Positions 527-48,344 of a stretch of DNA of 64,000 nucleotides are shown piece after piece. The position numbers and the translations under genes are program-made. This DNA comes from Bacilli bacterium (GTDB taxonomy: Bacteria > Bacillota_I > Bacilli_A > ML615J-28 > CAG-313). Each line of letters opens with the position of its first letter. Position 1 is the first letter of the stretch. Location: the NCBI GenBank assembly GCA_045653225.1, contig JAZOLP010000062.1, positions 908 to 64,907 of the forward strand, in the 5' to 3' direction. The notes beneath the pieces are model-generated. The model was not told the origin of the DNA and did not search any database. It saw only the letters and a program-made list of their open reading frames with translations.

Positions 527-817
527 TTAGCCCTTCGCTCTTAGCTCCTGAAACTGTTCCCATAAGTCTTGCGGTACATCAATACCATAGTCTTGAAAAC
601 CTTTTATTAATGCTTCTATTTCCGCGGGTGTGCGTCTGTCTGTGATTATCTCAAAACAGAGATATGCGCGTTTTTCATCTGTCTTAATATAACAAAAATC
701 ACATTCATCGCCTTCTGCAATTTTATATGCGTCCCTTATTTTCTTTGGTATACCTATGCGCCCTGCGTTGTCTATTTTGCGGGACTGGTCAAGTTTTTTG
801 AATTCAATTATATTCAT
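527..817 (-). CDS. AbrB/SpoVT/MazE-family DNA-binding regulator
   Basis: The GRIGIPKKIRDAYKIAEGD motif matches the swapped-hairpin GRVVIPKEIR signature. The protein is 96 aa. Confidence 0.6.
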   Translation of the reverse strand: MNIIEFKKLDQSRKIDNAGRIGIPKKIRDAYKIAEGDECDFCYIKTDEKRAYLCFEIITDRRTPAEIEALIKGFQDYGIDVPQDLWEQFQELRAKG

Positions 818-37624: not shown

Positions 37625-38107
37625 TTAATTTGTTTTCAAACATTCGATAATTCTTTGATTAGCGCTTCCTCGCCATTTCAAAGTTAAATCTTTCTGTTCT
37701 TCGACAAAAGGTCCGTCTATTAAATAATTAATTTTTTCTAATATATTTGTTATATAGATATCTTTTTTAGACATTAATTCTTCTATTGTATATCCTGTCC
37801 AGAGGAATATTTTTATATCTGGATGCGCGGCCCGCACCTTAGAAATTAAATGCGAGACTTCTTTGCGATTTCTCGGATGGAGGGGCTCTCCGCCAAGTAT
37901 ACTTAGGTTACGCTGAATTCCATTAGCAACAAGCGCGTTAAATATTTCTTTTTCAGTAGCCTTTGTATAAACATTTCCGCTCTGAAAATTCCACGCAGCT
38001 TTATTAAAACAACCTGGGCACTGGTGTTCACATCCGCTAACAAAGAGGGAAACGCATATACCCTCTCCGTTAACTATATCATTTGGATTGATAATCATAT
38101 AATTCAT
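37625..38107 (-). CDS. nrdG: anaerobic ribonucleotide reductase activating protein (radical SAM)
   Basis: 160 aa; GCEHQCPGCFN CxxxCxxC cluster; near-collinear with E. coli NrdG, including WTGY and LKWRGS. Confidence 0.8.
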   Translation of the reverse strand: MNYMIINPNDIVNGEGICVSLFVSGCEHQCPGCFNKAAWNFQSGNVYTKATEKEIFNALVANGIQRNLSILGGEPLHPRNRKEVSHLISKVRAAHPDIKIFLWTGYTIEELMSKKDIYITNILEKINYLIDGPFVEEQKDLTLKWRGSANQRIIECLKTN

Positions 38108-38469
38108 TTTACAAAATCCTCCATAAAATATAAAGTGTTACAATATAAATTACATACGGGTAAGATAATTTGCTCAATTATTTCATCTGGTATCGTATCA
38201 TCTATAATGCATGTTTTTGCACGTAAACCGCGAACACTTTCAGTTGCTTTGTAAACTCTATATGTTGTATTTCCAATTTTTACTATTGGAAACATACTAT
38301 GTTTTCTTAAATATTCTCCTTGAACTGCTTTTAGAAAAAAATCTAAATTTTCTAAAGAAGAATAAAAAATTATATTTGATAAACTTTGATTGCCACAAGG
38401 TACATTTAAAGTTTTTCTTGGAGTATTAAAATATTCAGTAATTTTTTTTCTATTTAAATATCTTTCCAT
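38104..38469 (-). CDS. hypothetical protein. Its ATG forms a TAATG junction with the stop of the nrdD 3-prime remnant, and its end overlaps nrdG (ATGA).
   Basis: ORF track; reading-frame junctions. Confidence 0.4.
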   Translation of the reverse strand: MERYLNRKKITEYFNTPRKTLNVPCGNQSLSNIIFYSSLENLDFFLKAVQGEYLRKHSMFPIVKIGNTTYRVYKATESVRGLRAKTCIIDDTIPDEIIEQIILPVCNLYCNTLYFMEDFVK

Positions 38470-38592: not shown

Positions 38593-40788
38593 TTACAGCC
38601 CTCCATGAAATGTTCTGCTTAATATTTCTTGCTTTTGTTCTTTTGTTAGAGAATTAAACAGAACTGCATATCCACTAATTCTAATTGTTAAGTTTGGATA
38701 GCTTTCAGGGTGTTCAATAGCATCTTCTAATGTTTCTTTGTTAAACACATTTACATTAATATGATGTCCATTTTTTTCAAAATATCCATCTAAAATTGTA
38801 CACAAATTATTCACTTGTTCTTTTGTATTTTTACCAAGCACAGAAGGAATAATTGTAAACGTATTTGAAATACCGTCATCACAGAACTGATAAGGTATTT
38901 TCGCAACTGAATTTAAAGAGGCAAGAGCGCCATTTTCTTCTCTTCCGTGGAGTGGGTTCGCGCCAGGAGCAAATGGAGCATATGCCTTTCTACCATCTGG
39001 AGTTGCGCCAGTTTTCTTTCCGTACATAATATTAGATGTTATTGTAAGTATAGATAAAGTTGGTTTTGCGTTTCTATAAAGCCATTGTGCTTCTAAGAAA
39101 TACTTAAAATAAGTAGCAACTTGAAGCCCTAACGCATCTGATTCATCTATATCATTACCATATTTAGGAAAATCGCCTTCAATTTTAAAATCAATAGCAA
39201 TTCCTTCTTCATTTCTTATCGGTATTACTTTTGCGAATTTAATACTTGCTAAACTATCGGACATTACTGAATAGCCTGCAATACCAAAAGCCATTAATCT
39301 ATCTTCTAAATGAGTATCGTGTAGAGCCATTTGAATTGATTCATACGCATACTTATCGTGCATAAAATGAATTACATTATTTGCATCTGAATAAATTCTT
39401 GCCAATTCGCGCAATACATATAAATAATTTTCATAAACTTCTTTAAAATCAAGAGGAGATTTTGTTAATTTTGGAACACCTTTAATTACTAATTCTCCTG
39501 TTCTTTCGTCTTTACCCTCGTTAATTGCATATAATAGAGCCTTGGCTAAATTACATCTTGCACCGAAGAATTGCATTTGTTTACCAGTTTTCATCGCAGA
39601 AACGCAACAAGCAATAGAATAATCATTTCCATATTTTGGTCTCATTAAATCATCATTCTCATATTGAATTGCACAAGTCTTAATAGACATTTCTGCACAA
39701 TATTTTTTAAAGTTTTCAGGTAGCTTTTCGCTCCATAAAACAGTTAAATTTGGTTCTGGTGCCGCACCTAAATGCTCTAGCGCGTGTAAAAATCTAAAAG
39801 AAGTTTTTGTTACTAATGATTGTTCATCGTTAAGCATACCACCTATTGCTTCAGTTACCCAAGTAGGATCTCCTGCGAATAATTCATCATAAGCAGAAGT
39901 GCGCAAATGACGAATAAATCTTAATTTTATAATAAACTGATCTATTAACTCTTGAGCTTCTTGCTCGGATATAATATCATTTTTTAAATCATTCTCAATA
40001 TAAATATCAATAAAAGTTGATACTCTGCCGAGAGAGGTTGCCGCGCCATTACTTTCTTTTGCACCAGCAAGATAAGCAAAATAAATTGCTTGAATTGCGT
40101 CTCTCGCGTTTGTAGCTGGCTTGTTAATCATAATACCATATCTGGCCGCCATTGTTGTTAATTCGCGCAATGCTTTAATTTGCATAGATACTTCTTCTCT
40201 TAATTGTATATCACGCATATCTAAATTTGCAAAATCTTTTTGCTTTTGTTCGATTAAATAATCTGTGCCATAAAGTGCTACTCTGCGATAGTCTCCTATG
40301 ATGCGGCCGCGTCCATAGGCATCTGGTAAGCCAGTTATTAACCCATTGTGTCTAGCTTTAAGAACTTCTTCTGAATAAGCATCAAATACTCCTTCATTAT
40401 GAGTTTTTCTAAATTGGTGAAACAAATCTAATTCATAAGGAGTTGTTAAATCGTGTTCTCGCAAACATTGCTTAACCATTCTTATTCCACCGTATGGGTT
40501 AATGATTCTTTTAAGTGGGGTATCTGTTTGAAGCCCCACTATTACTTCATTATCTTTATCTATATAGCCAGGTTGAAAATTATCTATTCCAGAAAACGCT
40601 TCTGTTTCAATATCTAATACTCCACCTGCTTCTTGTTCTTGTCTTAATAAATCTTTACATTTATCCCATAATTTTTGAGTTTTTTCTGTTATTGGTTGAA
40701 GAAAACTACTGTCTCCTAAATATTCAGTATAATTATTCTCAATAAATTTATTTACATTAATAGACATTGATTTTCCTCCTTTTCTCAA
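38593..40788 (-). CDS. pflB: pyruvate formate-lyase (formate C-acetyltransferase, glycyl radical enzyme)
   Basis: 731 aa, near-collinear with E. coli PflB. Active-site IACCVS is present, followed by [24 protein letters not shown]. The C-terminal glycyl-radical motif is [40 protein letters not shown] is also present. Confidence 0.85.
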
Positions 40789-41753
40789 AATTTATGTTTT
40801 ACTCTTAATTCTGTTTCTTGAACTTTTCCTTTATTAAATGCAGTTGTATAATTTCCTGTCAAATAACCTGTTACTCTTCTTAACTGTTGAATGTGTTCAC
40901 TACCGCACACAGGGCAGTATTTATTAAACTCGTCTAAATATCCACAATCCAAGCAAGCGTCATTTGGGACATTGATCGCGAAATAAGGTATATCCTTGTC
41001 CATAGCATAATTTATAATTTGCTCAATTGCAGATAAGTTATTTTTAACACTACCATCTAACTCTACATAAGTAATACATCCCGCACTTGAATAACCAGTT
41101 AATTGAGATTCTATGTCAATTTTATCAAATGGTGACATTTCTTTCCAAACTGGAACATGCATCGAATTAGTAAAGAATGCTTTATCACTAACATTTTCGA
41201 TTACTCCATATTTATCTTTAAATTTTTGCATAGCAGTAAAACAAAGATTTTCTGCAGGAGTATAATATACACCAAAGTTAAGTTTATACTCTTCTTTGAA
41301 TGAAGCGCATTTATCTTTAAATAATTGTTCAATTCTTTTAGCCAATACCATACCCTCTTCAGTTGTATGGTCTGTACCAATTAAAATTTGAAGTGTTTCC
41401 GCAAGACCAAGTTGCCCAATCGCAAGAGTTCCGTGTTTGAGTGCGCTTCTAATTCCCTCTTCTGGCACATAACCAGCCATTAAATTATTTTCATACATAA
41501 ATTTGGCTGAGTCTGGACTTTGCGAACAAATATATTCAAATCTTTCTAATAAGATGTCTTTTGCGTCGTGAATTTTTCTATTTAAAAGATTTAAGAATAC
41601 TACTTCTAAATCTTCTTCTTGTCCTTCTTCCTCACACATTTCTTTAGCCATCATAGCCAATGTAGGAAGAATAATTGTTACAGGACATATATTACCTCTA
41701 CCATCTTTAAGCTGGCCAAAACCATTAATATCCCAGCCGTTTGCCGTTCTGCA
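40785..41753 (-). CDS. nrdD: anaerobic ribonucleoside-triphosphate reductase, exon 2 (C-terminal part, beginning CRTANGWD)
   Basis: C-terminal Zn ribbon CLDCG...CPVCG and glycyl-radical motif RRVTGYLTG. The conserved MGCR motif is reconstituted only when joined to exon 1. Confidence 0.75.
40828..40857. repeat. left copy of the 30-nt direct repeat. It lies inside the intact nrdD 3-prime end and encodes [11 protein letters not shown].
   Basis: See the paired repeat at 38519-38550. Confidence 0.7.
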
Positions 41754-42575
41754 CATGTTAATCCGATGTTACCATCGGCACTGACTATATCTTCTCCAAT
41801 TATTTGGAGTCTTCCGCTTCGAATGTGCGCCTATCTCACATTCTACTCCCTTACATTCATCAGGGATAGTCGATACACTTTATTCATTATAATATTCAAA
41901 AATCCAAGTATTTTTATATGGACTTTTTACTTGTCCATTGAGTCGAGTGGTAATAGAAGTTTTTCCATTTTGTATTCCGCAGGCTCTGGCGCAACCAATT
42001 ACTGTATCGAAAATATCAACTTCATTTGTAATTATATTGGTTCGTTTGACTTTTTGAGCCATCGGGTTTTTCCCACCCAATTTTGTTTGTCTAATTTTTT
42101 CTTTAATTTCATTCATTTCTTCATCTGTTTTAGAAAGATATGTATTTCCACCGCATTTATAAATAGCGCTAGTTTCATTATATCCCTCTTTAACAGCATT
42201 ATAAAATTGAATCCAATATTGCTCTTTGAAATTTAATTCTTCTTGATTTTCTGCTGTATCAATTTCTTCTATAACAAAATTTTCTTTGCCGTATTTTCTA
42301 ATTGCTCGAGCAAAATGCGTATCAAGAATGTTATTTAATGCGTCATTTATATGACGATGAAATCTTGCTTCGATAGGCCTAATACTTTGACCTATATATA
42401 CTTTGTTGTTTTGAATATTTGTAATTTTATATATCCACATAGAAACTCCTTTCTATTGAATATTATAATGAATCTTAGCACGGTCTCATCCACGTGGGAC
42501 CTAACCGTTAGCCCGCAATCGCGGACACCCTCGGGCGAGGTTCAAAAGATTTTACATGGGCTGTAGTTTTCACTT
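41754..42575 (-). mobile_element. group I intron (822 nt) interrupting nrdD, carrying a GIY-YIG homing endonuclease ORF
   Basis: In-frame junction ...ATG GGT | intron | TGC AGA... The exon ends in U and the intron ends in G. GC-rich structured segments flank the ORF at both ends, with GACTA in the 3-prime part. There is an internal RBS for the endonuclease. The split falls exactly in the conserved NrdD MG|CR motif. Confidence 0.7.
41880..42440 (-). CDS. GIY-YIG homing endonuclease encoded within the intron
   Basis: WIYKITNIQNNKVYIGQS GIY-YIG motif; downstream R, H and N catalytic residues; basic C-terminal DNA-binding region. Confidence 0.75.
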   Translation of the reverse strand: MWIYKITNIQNNKVYIGQSIRPIEARFHRHINDALNNILDTHFARAIRKYGKENFVIEEIDTAENQEELNFKEQYWIQFYNAVKEGYNETSAIYKCGGNTYLSKTDEEMNEIKEKIRQTKLGGKNPMAQKVKRTNIITNEVDIFDTVIGCARACGIQNGKTSITTRLNGQVKSPYKNTWIFEYYNE

Positions 42576-43829
42576 ACCCATTGTGCTCATATATGTTCTA
42601 GGGTCGTCAGGATCGTATCCAGCATTGCCGCTCCAATCTACATTACAGTAATTTGGATATAATCTTGTTGCAGTTGATTTAAGAGCCAACTGATATAAAT
42701 CATAATTAGGGGTACCTGGTTTATCATTTACACCTTTCATATATTGAAAAATTTGACAAGGGAAAACAGATGTTCTATGCGATTTTCCAAGTCCTTCAAT
42801 TGTTCCTTCTAAAATAGCTTTTGTAACCATTCTTCCCTCAACTAGAGTACAAGTACCATAGTTAATTGAACTAAATGGAAGCTGATTTCCGCTACGAGAT
42901 TGTAAAGTATTAAGATTATGAAGCATACCTTCAACTGCTTGTTTTAATTCTCTTTCTGTCATATCCATAGCATATATATAAACATTTGGAAAATAATTTA
43001 TATAACATTCGTTAAATATAGAAGTTTCATTTGTTACGTAGTTAAATACTACTGCATCATACGGATTTTCAAACATTTCAATATATTTTAAACCATCCAC
43101 ATAGTGCTTATAGAAACTTTTTCTTACATACGGAACCATACTCCAATCCAAGTGAGAACAACTTACACCGCCAAACTGTTGTAAACTTTGTATCTGAAAA
43201 ATAACTGCCAATAGTTGAAATGCTGTATTGATTGAACTTGCGGGGCGCACATCTGTTTGTCTCGTATTGAAACCATTCGCAAGTAAATGATCAATAGGAA
43301 CAGTTAAACAGTTATGATTACCAAGTACATATTGATCTAGGTCGTGAGTATAAATTTTATTATTAAGATGATTATCTTTTGTTTTTTTGCTTACTAAATA
43401 ATTTAAAGCGTAGTCTTTATTCATTACGCTCGCGGCTTCGCCATTTCTTCCACCGAAAGATTTTTCATCTACATTTGCATTTTGATTTTTAATATCTTGT
43501 GCTTGAAGCTTTTTACCTATCTCTTTATGTAACGCGCTTTTCGCATTACGAGCAATACTTCTTTTTTCTCTATATATAATATAAGCTTTTGCAACATCTA
43601 ATCTTTCACTTTGCATAAGCTTTTGCTCAACTAAATCTTGTATTTTTTCTATATCCCAATCACTTACATAGTGAGTATATTCTTCATAGATTTCTTCTGC
43701 GATATCTTGAGCAATTTCCTCTGAATAAATTTGTCCATCTACTTCTTCAAAAGCTTTATTTATTGCTTTTATAATATTGTCTTTACAAAACTCTACAAGA
43801 GTTCCGTCTCTTTTAATTATCATCTTCAT
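42576..43829 (-). CDS. nrdD: anaerobic ribonucleoside-triphosphate reductase, exon 1 (N-terminal part with an ATP-cone). The ORF track runs on to a stop at 42570 inside the intron.
   Basis: IIKRDGTLVEFCKDNIIKAI ATP-cone; the exon ends ...YMSTMG. Confidence 0.75.
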
Positions 43830-43838
43830 TGCTACCTC

Positions 43839-43885
43839 CTACTAAATATTGTGTGCGGCAGACGATACCGCACTATATTTAGGTT
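43839..43885 (-). promoter_or_regulatory. two putative NrdR boxes with 31 bp between centres, upstream of nrdD
   Basis: On the minus strand the boxes read AACCTAAATATAGTGC and ACACAATATTTAGTAG. Each matches 12 of 16 positions of the ACACTATATATAGTGT consensus, recalled from memory. The spacing is about three helical turns. An RNA hairpin GTGCGG...CCGCAC lies between them. Confidence 0.35.
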
Positions 43886-43894
43886 TTGTTAGAA

Positions 43895-44485
43895 TTAGAT
43901 TGTCCATTCTTGCCCACAGAGAACAGTATCAATTTGGTGAATGGTATCGGAAAATTCCCAGCGTGTGTTATTTTTGAACTTCGACACGATTGGGAATTCG
44001 TCTTCATTTTCTGTGATTTGAAAATCTGCTTTGTCAGTAGAAAATCTTCTAATAATTTCTTCAATATCTGGATTTTCTTCTCTGCTAAGCTGACGAATTA
44101 ATCTTTCTTTGTCTGTTGCTTCAATATAAGCAACTTTTAAATCGATTCTGTCGTCCCAACTTAGTATTTGAATACCCTCTGGGTTTAACACAAGTAAATT
44201 AATTTTTTCTTCATCTAAAGACATAATTGGAGTACCATAGGCCCAATTATTAAAACAAGTTGCTTCAAGCATTCTATTGTTATCTAATTCTCTTAAAAAG
44301 GTTTCAGGAGTTAAAAAATGATAATCAACTCCATTAACTTCTCCCTCTCTTGGAGGTCGAGTAGTCGCGGAAACTACTCGATTAAATTTATGCGGTCTAA
44401 GCTTTAATAATTCTTTAGCTATTGTATCTTTTCCGCTTCCCGCTTTGCCCATAATAGCTAAAACTTTAAGCTTCTTCATCTTCAT
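43895..44485 (-). CDS. gmk: guanylate (nucleoside monophosphate) kinase
   Basis: P-loop GKAGSGKDT; GMP-binding signature SATTRPPREGEVNGVDYHF. Confidence 0.7.
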   Translation of the reverse strand: MKMKKLKVLAIMGKAGSGKDTIAKELLKLRPHKFNRVVSATTRPPREGEVNGVDYHFLTPETFLRELDNNRMLEATCFNNWAYGTPIMSLDEEKINLLVLNPEGIQILSWDDRIDLKVAYIEATDKERLIRQLSREENPDIEEIIRRFSTDKADFQITENEDEFPIVSKFKNNTRWEFSDTIHQIDTVLCGQEWTI

Positions 44486-47400
44486 ATTCTCCTTTATATC
44501 GTTCCTCTTGAAGAACTATATCTCCTTTGTTGTCTATATCTAAAATTCTATATAGTTGGTGGCCGCCTGTTGCAGTATATTTTTTAGCAACAAAATCATC
44601 GCCTCGTCTAATACCTTGAATCAACAGCATATTGCCTCGAGTGAACCAGCTTTTTTCCATAACTTTTTTCTTTCCATCTGCTTGTCTTTCAGAAATCTGT
44701 TTATCGAACAATGAAAAATATTCTTTTCCAAACTTAACATTAACGACGCCATCGTTTGTTAATAATGAAATAGTTGATTTAATTTTATTTTTTGCAATAC
44801 AAGTACCTGCTATTTTATATATTTTATAAATAGGAATTAATGCTTCTTTTCTTCTGATGGTATAATCAATATCAGGCTCTTCGTTTAACTCAAAGAAACT
44901 TGATATCCCATACTTAGTATCATCTAAATCAATTAATTCATGATCGTGGTAATAGAAACTTAATGATTCCATTTCCCATTTTGAAATATTACCTTTACCC
45001 GCGTACTTTGCCCAATCTTCTAAAAATACTTGATTATTTAAAGATTGTAAAATTTCTTTTTGCTCTGCTGATAACCAGGCGCGAGCCGCGTCCATAACTT
45101 TCTGATACTTCTTATCCCAAGCTTTTACTCCAATTCCAAGTTGACCGTCTATTGAAGCTACTCCATCAAAGTTATCCATAAAGAAAACCTCTGCGGCTTG
45201 ATCAAAAATATAGTTTTCACCTTTTTTGCATTTTGCTTTTAAATATTTGTTAAAATGATATACAGATTTTTCAAAATTTAATTCTTTTGGAACCAAATCT
45301 CTTTTTATTAATGTTGGGAAATTTTGTAAATTAAGTTTACTTTTTAAATCTGATGTCTTATAAACATATCTTGCCATTAAATGTTTTCTATCTTCAAACT
45401 TATCAAAAGCTCCCGCTTTAATTAACGATATGGTTTGAGTTTTATTCGTTTTTACTTTTGACATAAAATCATCAAAATCATTATATGGTCTATTGCTAAT
45501 AATTTCTTGAACCAAATCATCGCCAATATTAGCTATTGCTTTTAAACCAAATAAAATTTCATTGTTTTCAATATCTGGAATAAAACCAAAATCAGATTTA
45601 TTAATATCTGCTAGCGATACTTTAATTCCTGAGGTGCGGATATCACCTATCGCTTTTGCTATTTTATCATATTTTGTTGTATCGCCCTTATCAGGGTCTA
45701 CTGCGCCACTATTAACAATTAAACACGCGGTATTCCAATATATAGGTTTCCAATTTGTCGCGAGAAACGCGTCCTGTACACCTACAAACGAGTATGGGAG
45801 AGAGTGATTAATTGAAAATGCATAACCTAGAGACGGAGCTATCGCAGCTTCCCATACATAGTTAGCCTCCAGAGTATTTGGTATATGCGCGAATAACTGT
45901 TCTTTTAATTCTGGAATTTTATCCATTTGCTTCTTCGCAACAATTTTACGCGCGGCATTTGCTTCACCCAGTGTAAATCCGGCGATATCAGGATCCATAA
46001 GAATTTGCATCATTTGTTCCTGCATTGGTACGCATCCATAATATTCATCACAATATTTATGCAAGGCTGTGCGCATTTTATCACCAACTCCAGCGCTGCG
46101 CATTTCATCTTCAAAAACATCTAATCCTTCGTGCTGAATACGATAAAACTTGTCTTGCTGAGATTCTTTACCTTTTTCGCTCATTAATCTCATCATCGCG
46201 GAAGCCGCGGTCATTTCAAGAATATTTTGTGGTTTAAGCTTTTTAGCTATTGCTAAACCAACACCTGTACAAAATTGGAATATATCTAAAACTTCTCCGT
46301 TTCCTATTGCATCCCAAATTTTTTGATTCGATAAATCAAGTTTTTCTGGATGTAAATATTGATTATATACTTCTCTAATTGAGAGATTATCTGGTATTTC
46401 TTTATATATTTGAAGCATTTTCATTGCTTGAATAATTTTATCGCATACTTCTGTAACAAGAAAGTCATACTTTGTGTCTCCGCAAGCTTCTGCCTCGTGA
46501 AGATCAAATTGAGTAACTAAGTCTCCTGATGGGGTTCTCATGATCGCTGAAGTTTCATATAATGTGTCATCATATAATATTACACCAGACGCGTGACTCG
46601 AACGGCCGCATATAATTCCTTCAATAGATAACATAATATCCAAAAGTCCTGGATACATACTTACTTCTTTTATAAAAGTTTTATTTGGTTTTCTATCTTT
46701 TTCTGGATTACCATAAATAGTATCTTTAAGTGAGAAGATAAAACCTCTTTCTTGTTCTATTAATGAACTTATATATTGCGCGACATCAACATCAATTCCG
46801 CTTGGATATTCTTCACTTCTGTATCCGCGGCACGCGGTTAATATCGCACTTTTTGTTGTTTCAGTTTTAAATGTACTAACTTGAACAAGCCCTAACTCTC
46901 CACGCTCCTCGCGAATTTTTGAGAAGATGAGTGGTCTTGCAGACGGGGCCAGATCTATATCTATATCCGGTAATTCTGCACGCTCGCGATTAAGAAAACG
47001 CCATTCAGGTAAGTTCCATCTCATTGGGTCTAATTGAGTAATACCCATACAATAATTTGAAAGATAGCCAGTTGCGCTACCTCTACCTGGTCCTACGATA
47101 CTTCCGCACTCCCAGAATAAATTAATGTAATGTTGAAGAGTATTAAAATAAGCAAACAAACAATCTTCTAATTGTTCGCCTATAAACTTAATAACCGAAG
47201 CTTCTTCTTCTACTCTTGCTAAATACCTATCATCGCTAAACTTACCCATATTCATTAAACCATTTAAAACTTCATTAGCCCAATATCTCTCTTGAATTTC
47301 ATTTGATAATAATAACGAATGAATTGTTGGGTAATTATTGTCTAATTCATCACGAACACTATTATTAACACCAAAATGTGAAAGTGATTTAGGGTAATTT

Positions 47401-48344
47401 TTTACTGAGACTTTTGGAATTTTTTGTTTATGACGTAAGCTATAGCTAGTTATTTTTGAGTTAATTTCTTCTGAATTGGAAAAGAGTTCATCAATAAATT
47501 CTTTCTCGAACGATTTACCTAAATTCTCATAAATTTCATCATTTGTTTGAAGATAAGAAAATTCATAAAAAGCATCAACTTCTCTTTCTCCCTCTCTTGA
47601 ATTAAGATATGCTTTATGAACATATCTATCATCTTTTTTCATAAAGTGCGCATCTGTGCCAATTACTATTTTTATGCCATAGTACGCAGCGATATCTTTA
47701 AGTCTCTTGTTAACTATAACTTGCTCTTCAGAGCAACCAGGAGCAACTTCAATATAGAAATCATCGTGAAATAAATCTTTGCAAAATAATATGAATTTTT
47801 CAATTTCTTGCTTTGTTTCTAAAATAGTTCCTAAATCCGCGTGCGCGTTCTCGAGCTGGCATAGTCTTAAAACCAGAGTTGAGAGTTCTCCGCCGAGACA
47901 CGCGGTGGTTCCTATTAAATTTCCTGGATTTTCTTTTATAATAGCTTCTAATTCTGATTTAAGAGTTGGAACTCTTTCATATCCTCTATCTGAATATGCA
48001 TTTAACCAAGAGTTAGAAGATAATTTTCTTAATTGAATGTATCCTTCTTTGTTTTTTGCGATTAAAATAAAATGATAATATTTTTGCCCTCTTTCTCTAT
48101 CATCTGTTAAATAAATTTCATTGCCGAGTGCTACAGTAAAATCTGGATATTTTTCTGCGTGAAAGTTACATTTTGCATGAGCGCAAAGAGCCTCATGGTC
48201 TGTAATCGCGATGCCAGATAAACCAAGCTCAACAGCACGATCTATAATAGCTTCTGGGTTATTGATACAATCAAGTAATCGTAAATTTGATAAAGTTGTA
48301 TGTATATGTGGATCAAATCTTCCCACATCATCACTCCTTTTCAT
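44466..48344 (-). CDS. dnaE: DNA polymerase III alpha-subunit-like replicative polymerase (PHP domain plus Pol III core), DnaE-type
   Basis: 1292 aa; N-terminal PHP motifs HIHTTLS and ITDHEAL; size and architecture. Confidence 0.6.
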   Translation of the reverse strand: MKRSDDVGRFDPHIHTTLSNLRLLDCINNPEAIIDRAVELGLSGIAITDHEALCAHAKCNFHAEKYPDFTVALGNEIYLTDDRERGQKYYHFILIAKNKEGYIQLRKLSSNSWLNAYSDRGYERVPTLKSELEAIIKENPGNLIGTTACLGGELSTLVLRLCQLENAHADLGTILETKQEIEKFILFCKDLFHDDFYIEVAPGCSEEQVIVNKRLKDIAAYYGIKIVIGTDAHFMKKDDRYVHKAYLNSREGEREVDAFYEFSYLQTNDEIYENLGKSFEKEFIDELFSNSEEINSKITSYSLRHKQKIPKVSVKNYPKSLSHFGVNNSVRDELDNNYPTIHSLLLSNEIQERYWANEVLNGLMNMGKFSDDRYLARVEEEASVIKFIGEQLEDCLFAYFNTLQHYINLFWECGSIVGPGRGSATGYLSNYCMGITQLDPMRWNLPEWRFLNRERAELPDIDIDLAPSARPLIFSKIREERGELGLVQVSTFKTETTKSAILTACRGYRSEEYPSGIDVDVAQYISSLIEQERGFIFSLKDTIYGNPEKDRKPNKTFIKEVSMYPGLLDIMLSIEGIICGRSSHASGVILYDDTLYETSAIMRTPSGDLVTQFDLHEAEACGDTKYDFLVTEVCDKIIQAMKMLQIYKEIPDNLSIREVYNQYLHPEKLDLSNQKIWDAIGNGEVLDIFQFCTGVGLAIAKKLKPQNILEMTAASAMMRLMSEKGKESQQDKFYRIQHEGLDVFEDEMRSAGVGDKMRTALHKYCDEYYGCVPMQEQMMQILMDPDIAGFTLGEANAARKIVAKKQMDKIPELKEQLFAHIPNTLEANYVWEAAIAPSLGYAFSINHSLPYSFVGVQDAFLATNWKPIYWNTACLIVNSGAVDPDKGDTTKYDKIAKAIGDIRTSGIKVSLADINKSDFGFIPDIENNEILFGLKAIANIGDDLVQEIISNRPYNDFDDFMSKVKTNKTQTISLIKAGAFDKFEDRKHLMARYVYKTSDLKSKLNLQNFPTLIKRDLVPKELNFEKSVYHFNKYLKAKCKKGENYIFDQAAEVFFMDNFDGVASIDGQLGIGVKAWDKKYQKVMDAARAWLSAEQKEILQSLNNQVFLEDWAKYAGKGNISKWEMESLSFYYHDHELIDLDDTKYGISSFFELNEEPDIDYTIRRKEALIPIYKIYKIAGTCIAKNKIKSTISLLTNDGVVNVKFGKEYFSLFDKQISERQADGKKKVMEKSWFTRGNMLLIQGIRRGDDFVAKKYTATGGHQLYRILDIDNKGDIVLQEERYKGEYEDEEA

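Follow-up and report, generated by a model that had tools for sequence, protein, structure and literature searches.

The window, by which we mean the whole stretch of 64,000 nucleotides that was analysed, was AT-rich phage DNA (32% G+C, 68% A+T). Its plus strand carried a structural module including a terminase; the minus strand carried a replication and nucleotide-metabolism module with a DnaB-like helicase, a primase, a RecJ-like exonuclease, a Dda-like helicase, a methyltransferase, a dUTPase and a RuvC-like resolvase. On the minus strand, the gene for DNA polymerase III alpha (dnaE, 44466-48344) lay upstream of a guanylate kinase gene (gmk, 43895-44485; Pfam Guanylate_kin, E = 2.5e-24), and a gap of 65 bp separated gmk from nrdD, the only reductase catalytic gene in the window. 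Most of this gap was taken up by a pair of boxes resembling those bound by the repressor NrdR; the element spanned 47 bp (43839-43885) and stood directly before nrdD.

The nrdD gene was split into ORFs of 419 and 323 codons, with the break at positions 260/264 of the NRDD profile. The N-terminal half (42570-43829, minus strand), which is the first gene after the putative operator, matched NRDD positions 2-260 (E = 8.8e-61) and an ATP-cone (E = 3.4e-21); the C-terminal half with the glycyl radical domain (40785-41756, minus strand) matched positions 264-562 (E = 3e-74). The gene that splits them encoded a GIY-YIG homing endonuclease (41880-42440, minus strand; Pfam GIY-YIG, E = 1.2e-7), and no group I intron was detected between the two halves with Rfam. 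The end of the C-terminal half was overlapped by a gene for a pyruvate formate-lyase-like (PFL-like) glycyl radical enzyme (38593-40788, minus strand; Pfam PFL-like, E = 1.6e-186). This was followed on the same strand by orf121, a 121-codon ORF of no assigned function, and by a gene for an NrdG-type radical SAM activase (37625-38107, minus strand; Pfam Fer4_12, E = 1.8e-45), the presumed end of the operon. From their tight packing on one strand, we infer that nrdD, the PFL-like gene and the activase gene form one operon.

Loci of relatives around nrdD are labelled here with L-numbers. In many NrdD relatives nrdD was split at about the same place as in the window, and in the Thomasclavelia phage TR-TP1 an HNH gene occupied that place. 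L019 had a different split, also with an HNH gene (593 + 156 codons), and nrdD of L003 was unsplit. The PFL-like gene, lying between the C-terminal half of nrdD and orf121/nrdG, was absent from the 76%-identical relatives L020-22 and therefore looks like a recent insertion. The NrdG-type activase was the sole activase near it. The best matches of the PFL-like gene were 65-74% identical and mixed phage-like with Clostridia-type proteins, with no close bacterial match; one exception was a 96% match on a 3-kb contig. Among further small unassigned ORFs at the left end of the window, the ORF at 527-817 (minus strand) weakly resembled the MazE/AbrB-type antitoxin fold, with E = 3e-4 falling short of the Pfam cut-off.

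Features of the box pair and its distinctness in the window

Read on the minus strand, the gap was TAA-ttctaacaa-AACCTAAATATAGTGC-ggtatcgtctgccgc-ACACAATATTTAGTAG-gaggtagca-ATG, with both boxes capitalised. The initial annotation had described two minus-strand 16-mers here, each matching the NrdR-box consensus at 12 of 16 positions, with centres 31 bp apart, and both the matches and the spacing were borne out. Box 1 (AACCTAAATATAGTGC) occupied 43885-43870 and box 2 (ACACAATATTTAGTAG) 43854-43839; each agreed with the 16-position consensus ACACTATATATAGTGT at 12 positions, and a linker of 15 bp (GGTATCGTCTGCCGC, 43855-43869, minus strand) lay between them. The gmk stop codon was 9 nt before box 1. 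Box 2 ended 10 nt before the nrdD start codon, and its last two bases overlapped the ribosome-binding site AGGAGG (43835-43840, minus strand), which itself stood 5 nt before the ATG at 43829. Together the two boxes formed an extended inverted repeat (43842-43882) with arms of 12 nt (43842-43853 and 43871-43882) that were 92% complementary. A GC stem-loop (43853-43873, minus strand), in which GTGCGG (43873-43868) pairs with CCGCAC (43858-43853) around a 9-nt loop, overlapped the inner edges of the boxes.

With dATP and ATP bound, an NrdR tetramer attaches to a pair of 16-bp boxes spaced three, or in some cases four, helical turns from centre to centre; C4 and G13 are contact points, the AT-rich core is bent, and NrdR carrying only ATP does not bind DNA (PMC9110341, PMC12051234, PMC13584703). 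A 2026 mutational study named six highly conserved positions (C4, A6, A8, T9, T11 and G13), of which C4 and G13 were essential and A6 and T11 important, while position 3 was irrelevant (PMC13584703). Binding needs at least 63% A/T between C4 and G13 as well as two boxes, a single box being left unbound, and it does not require conservation of the linker sequence (PMC13584703). The NrdR proteins of four species bound sites with spacers of 14-17 and 24-27 bp, and other spacer lengths were bound about two orders of magnitude worse (PMC12051234). In the window, all six of these positions were present in both boxes. The 8 bp between C4 and G13 (TAAATATA and AATATTTA) were A/T at 8 of 8 positions in each box, and the 15-bp linker fell within the 14-17 bp spacer class bound by NrdR (PMC12051234).

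AT-rich DNA readily matches the consensus centre, TATATATA, so three stricter tests were applied. Only 9 positions in the 64 kb reached 12 of 16 consensus matches, and this pair was the only one in the window with both boxes at 11/16 or better at a spacing of 30-33 bp. The six-position pattern occurred singly 29 times in the window vs 21 expected; doubled at 31 bp, it occurred once, and in none of 100 dinucleotide-preserving shuffles. A scoring matrix was derived from ten E. coli and S. coelicolor boxes for which NrdR binding had been measured (PMC13584703), a small set from distant species; in the window it placed box 2 5th and box 1 10th of 63,985 positions. With this ten-box matrix the pair scored 19.9 bits vs 11.5 bits for the next best pair, a margin of about 8 bits, and 19.9 bits was reached anywhere in 4 of 200 shuffled windows. 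A comparison of the matrix score with background had been proposed in the initial annotation; the score lay above background, and the pair ranked first.

Several other candidates were seen in the window. The best single NrdR-like box, ACTCTATATGTTGTAT (38255-38270; 12.7 bits, 6/6 core positions), sat within orf121 and preceded the activase gene by about 150 nt, and a search at every accepted spacing found no partner for it. A weak pair at 44513/44543 was dismissed, since it fails G13 and T11. The sequence CTAAATATAGTG, tried as a recurrent phage motif or promoter, was unenriched (13 matches vs 11.5 expected in the window). A perfect 12-bp inverted repeat (CTTTATATAGTG...CACTATATAAAG) at 1635-1666 lay in the gap between two small minus-strand ORFs; each of its arms resembled an NrdR core but for a single deviation (A6T or T11A), and the cores were only 22 bp apart.

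An NrdR operator would be expected to coincide with its promoter or to follow it closely. The promoter scan reported no sigma-70-type promoter in the gap; its candidates upstream of dnaE were at 48382-48354 and 48669-48640. By hand, the best sigma-70-like combination in the gap was TCTAAT-16-TATAGT (7/12), of which TATAGT, a weak candidate -10 hexamer, lay in box 1 (43872-43877, minus strand). Relatives reached 8-9/12 for the candidate at the same place, and the long-spacer loci L024 and L083 had TGGACA-17-TATCTT inside the putative operator.

No NrdR gene was found within the 64-kb window by tblastn with E. coli and B. subtilis NrdR queries, whose identity as NrdR was confirmed by scores of about 259 bits against TIGR00244. 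The canonical motif AY[IV]RFASVY occurred in 8 of 2.9 million viral contigs, none of them from this phage family, in a scan that would miss divergent phage versions of NrdR. An alignment-based scan of the viral contigs with poorly conserved peptides found NrdR zinc-ribbon fragments only. A few viral contigs (L183-L188) encoded short proteins that matched only the zinc-ribbon part of NrdR (residues 1-50). Since the window held no such gene and the canonical motif was very rare in viral contigs, the reader of the boxes is most likely the NrdR of the host. NrdR has been reported in 77% of bacterial genomes (PMC13584703). The best NrdD matches in genome bins were on contigs of 100-200 kb with inconsistent taxa; the bin labels were mostly Bacillota (Clostridia, Bacilli, Mollicutes, Erysipelotrichaceae) and disagreed with one another. 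Misbinning of phage contigs probably accounts for these matches.

Box pairs in related phages and the operator reading

No isolated phage similar at the DNA level was found. By protein, the nearest isolated phages were the Thomasclavelia phages TR-TP1 and TR-TP2 (NrdD 60% identical); nrdD overlaps the upstream gene in both, and no boxes were found before it. The C. difficile phage phiCD211 and Phass-1 were tried as cultured examples and set aside, as neither has boxes. The NrdD protein search returned thousands of relatives, many of them on contigs of 100-215 kb.

The closest of these, L019 (NrdD 89% identical) and L020-22 (76% identical), had the same gmk-nrdD junction and kept both boxes. 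Box 1 was identical in L019, and L020 had one change per box, at position 3. The linker in these loci was 14 or 15 bp and the GC stem was also kept, while the 9 nt from the gmk stop codon to box 1 differed at 3-5 positions. A more distant set of 80 viral-contig loci (NrdD 60-66% identical) gave 65 distinct upstream regions. Over the whole range of 60-89% NrdD identity, about one third to one half of the distinct upstream regions had two boxes before nrdD. The density of six-position cores was 7.8/kb in the 120 nt before nrdD vs 0.41/kb in the other 264 kb, a 19-fold difference. Beyond the 120-nt region there were only two core pairs, and that of L045 was also upstream of nrdD, just past the cut-off.

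Core spacings before nrdD were 30 bp (5 pairs), 31 bp (9), 32 bp (2), 33 bp (1), 42 bp (2), 43 bp (1), 19 bp (3) and 45 bp (2). The 17 pairs at 30-33 bp correspond to spacers of 14-17 bp and the three pairs at 42-43 bp to spacers of 26-27 bp; the pairs at 45 bp (L023, L026), whose second core overlaps the start-codon region, were treated as chance. Taken together, the spacers of the relatives were 14-17 or 25-27 bp. Box 2 ended 0-1 nt before GGAGG in most relatives. Linkers were unrelated between groups (e.g., aatattctaaaagaa, aagtttaaaaattc, taagacttaaaaaatt and agaatcacccttttttc) and unconserved outside the close clade. That related phages keep the boxes with unrelated linkers, and only at spacer lengths accepted by NrdR, supports the presence of an operator.

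Boxes were present at 26 loci with gmk upstream and at 5 without it, and another 21 gmk-nrdD junctions had none. Because the boxes were found both with and without gmk upstream, they go with nrdD and not with the end of gmk. In a rough neighbour-joining tree, the box-bearing loci grouped in clades with scattered losses; inside a phage NrdD lineage, the presence of boxes goes clade by clade. The initial annotation had called the tandem boxes before the phage nrdD retained; the boxes are indeed there, but no bacterial donor was found from which they could have been kept.

In a subclade of nine loci (L007-L011, L041, L044, L059, L089), two perfect cores stood 19 bp apart, with the boxes separated by 3 bp (CGTCTAAATATAGTAC-gag-ACACAAAATTTAGAAT); a third core with one mismatch overlapped the start codon, 41 bp from the first core. 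A core spacing of 19 bp is outside the spacings known to support NrdR binding.

Bacterial genome assemblies, of which 780 kb of loci were covered, contained further box pairs. In cultured Konateibacter massiliensis, a near-consensus pair (ACACTATATATAGTGT-16 bp-ACACTACATATAGTGG; L119, 358-405) on a 3.0-Mb contig headed a gene run with an NAD-dependent ligase, a phage-type DUF3310 protein, a nucleoside deoxyribosyltransferase and a split nrdD. Ruminococcus sp. YE282 had a comparable pair (L146, 2546-2592), heading a run whose last genes were gmk, a deoxyribosyltransferase gene, nrdD and nrdG. Both gene runs were prophage-like modules.

We consider it likely that 43839-43885 is a functional NrdR operator read by the NrdR of the host, because the boxes, the six positions, the AT core, the 15-bp spacer and the place upstream of a reductase gene all fit. 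The operator reading of the initial annotation is thus supported, all testable sequence features being present and related phages keeping box pairs. When dATP is plentiful, host NrdR would sit on the gmk-nrdD gap and lower transcription of nrdD, and probably also that of the co-directional PFL-like and activase genes. Once phage DNA replication drains the dNTPs, the repressor would leave and the module would be expressed. The bound repressor might either cover a weak promoter that has the right half of box 1 as its -10, or act as a roadblock to RNA polymerase coming from the region upstream of dnaE. The analysis itself shows the sequence features, the place of the pair, its being the only one in the window and its conservation across related phages; that NrdR binds and represses here, and how far the operon reaches, we infer from these.

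Like the nrdDG operators of E. coli (GCACTATATATAGACT // ACCCAATATGTTGTAT) and Listeria monocytogenes (16-bp spacer), both bacterial NrdR operators (PMC13584703; PMC12051234), the phage site has two partially palindromic 16-bp boxes with the six conserved positions and an AT-rich core, and an unconserved linker of 15-16 bp, upstream of a class III reductase gene. Unlike them, it lies in a phage genome, in a 65-bp gap inside a long co-directional gene run; its box 2 runs into the ribosome-binding site, it has no clear overlapping promoter, and searches of the window and of this phage family turned up no repressor gene. The phage boxes also mirror each other more closely than the published bacterial examples do. 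The long-spacer sites of Streptococcus pneumoniae (25-26 bp; PMC12051234) are matched by the relatives L024, L083 and L055, with four turns, whereas the pair in the window uses the short spacer class.

The site would be an ordinary type of operator in an unreported place, a phage genome. No paper reporting NrdR boxes in phage genomes was found in a full-text search of the literature that is open without subscription, and the main NrdR papers make no mention of phages in this context. Other phages carry sites for host regulators, such as the LexA boxes of temperate phages and the Pho boxes and NtcA sites of cyanophages. As in those cases, a phage gene would be placed under a host sensor-regulator by carrying the operator of that regulator; unlike in those cases, the regulator would be NrdR and the signal the dATP/ATP ratio. 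A known concept would therefore be extended and none created, since operators of this type are familiar and phages have been seen to borrow other host regulators.

If host NrdR reads the site, a large group of phages from gut and rumen would tie their dNTP-supply genes to the dATP/ATP sensor of the host, and these genes would be expressed only once replication has drained the pool. Such a phage should then infect a bacterium with nrdR, which would be an aid to host prediction. The spacers of the related phages (14, 15, 16, 17 and 25-26 bp, plus the odd 3-bp case) form a natural series for studying which NrdR sites are valid, a matter of current interest. NrdR proteins bind the operators of other species in vitro, and the Konateibacter massiliensis and Ruminococcus sp. 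YE282 loci could be used as experimental systems.

Alternative readings and further motifs before nrdD

Two copies of a palindromic consensus will inevitably pair when transcribed into RNA. The region was predicted to fold at -21.6 kcal/mol (z = -3.19) with the GC stem included. Box-to-box complementarity was 12.4/16, vs 9.1 and 10.1 for each box with itself and 10.8 for permuted pairs; the value of 12.4 was reached in 0 of 2000 permutations, in a test that is inflated by shared ancestry. Several relatives also had strong predicted hairpins (z of -3 to -5.4), some with small stems within the linker. By contrast, five loci (L064, L065, L031, L034 and L024) kept the boxes and their spacing with no significant fold (z above -1.2). 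The small GC hairpin pointed out in the initial annotation is a real stem-loop, but it is limited to the close relatives of the window (L019 and L020-22), is absent from the other box-bearing relatives and stands outside the conserved design.

The excess complementarity of the boxes and the conserved GC stem leave room for a dual role, to which we give a small but real chance. The element would then be an NrdR operator that also serves as a multicopy decoy for host NrdR and as an RNA stem-loop tuning nrdD translation or transcript stability. As a decoy, the many copies of the phage genome would soak up the few NrdR tetramers of the host, and the host reductase genes would be turned on during infection.

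It is unlikely that the element acts as RNA and that its likeness to NrdR boxes is incidental. As an intercistronic stem-loop before the ribosome-binding site, it would lend stability to the gmk-nrdD transcript, take part in its processing or adjust the translation of nrdD. It resembles the intercistronic stem-loops of phage mRNAs in being an inverted repeat between genes, next to a ribosome-binding site and predicted to be stable as RNA; unlike theirs, its conserved features are box positions and helical phasing, not pairing. The strength of the predicted hairpin in the window and in several relatives fits such a role, but the foldless loci still keep the boxes. The complementarity of the boxes exceeds what a shared consensus predicts, yet a two-fold-symmetric tetramer would likewise favour mirror-image boxes. 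NrdR needs no conserved linker, yet L019 and L020-22 share the GC stem, and the end of box 2 right before GGAGG in most relatives would also suit an RNA element. However, a hairpin leaves C4, A6, A8, T9, T11 and G13 in both arms unexplained and offers no rationale for "loops" limited to 14-17 or 25-27 nt. The motif is confined to places before nrdD or heading modules that contain nrdD, and it is unused elsewhere in the window. No Rfam family was matched by the covariance models at gathering thresholds, and the E-value mode gave two chance-level matches (E = 0.88 and 8.2). Judged by what the relatives keep, the conserved design is that of an NrdR operator and not of an RNA fold; a secondary role at the RNA level is possible in some clades, including that of the window.

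We regard as improbable that the site is the operator of a phage-encoded regulator with a similar AT-rich palindrome and not of host NrdR. The window is part of a phage genome, so a regulator gene could lie outside it, but the 64 kb held no NrdR-like gene. Proteins that resemble only the zinc ribbon of NrdR are encoded by a few viral contigs, against a canonical NrdR motif found in only 8 of the 2.9 million and in none of this family. The 19-bp subclade and the palindrome at 1635-1666 hint at geometries that NrdR is not known to use, yet the site in the gmk-nrdD gap agrees so well with the NrdR criteria and spacing classes that no other protein is needed to explain it.

An intrinsic terminator, or a chance palindrome without regulatory meaning, is very improbable: the genome is 68% A+T, the NrdR-box consensus is centred on TATATATA, and the stem-loop does follow the gmk stop codon, but the stem is followed by ACAATATTTAGTAGG with no T-run, the terminator scan reported nothing, none of the 100 shuffles gave such a pair, the strong conservation of the site contrasts with its diverging flanks, and the cores are enriched 19-fold before nrdD in relatives.

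Motifs of other kinds were seen before nrdD as well. A separate large clade without boxes (L027, L029, L036, L038, L039, L043, L046, L050, L054, L058, L060, L074 and others) had a different conserved motif, roughly ATCCTTAAAATAATTAAATAATTAGGAGG, at the same position before nrdD; its UCCU could pair with the ribosome-binding site, and the predicted folds were not significant. In Prevotella, the nrdD upstream regions (L170-L182) contained repeated inverted motifs of the GGAAAACTTT / AAAGTTTTCC type, which stand in place of NrdR boxes and suggest a different regulator in these Bacteroidota.
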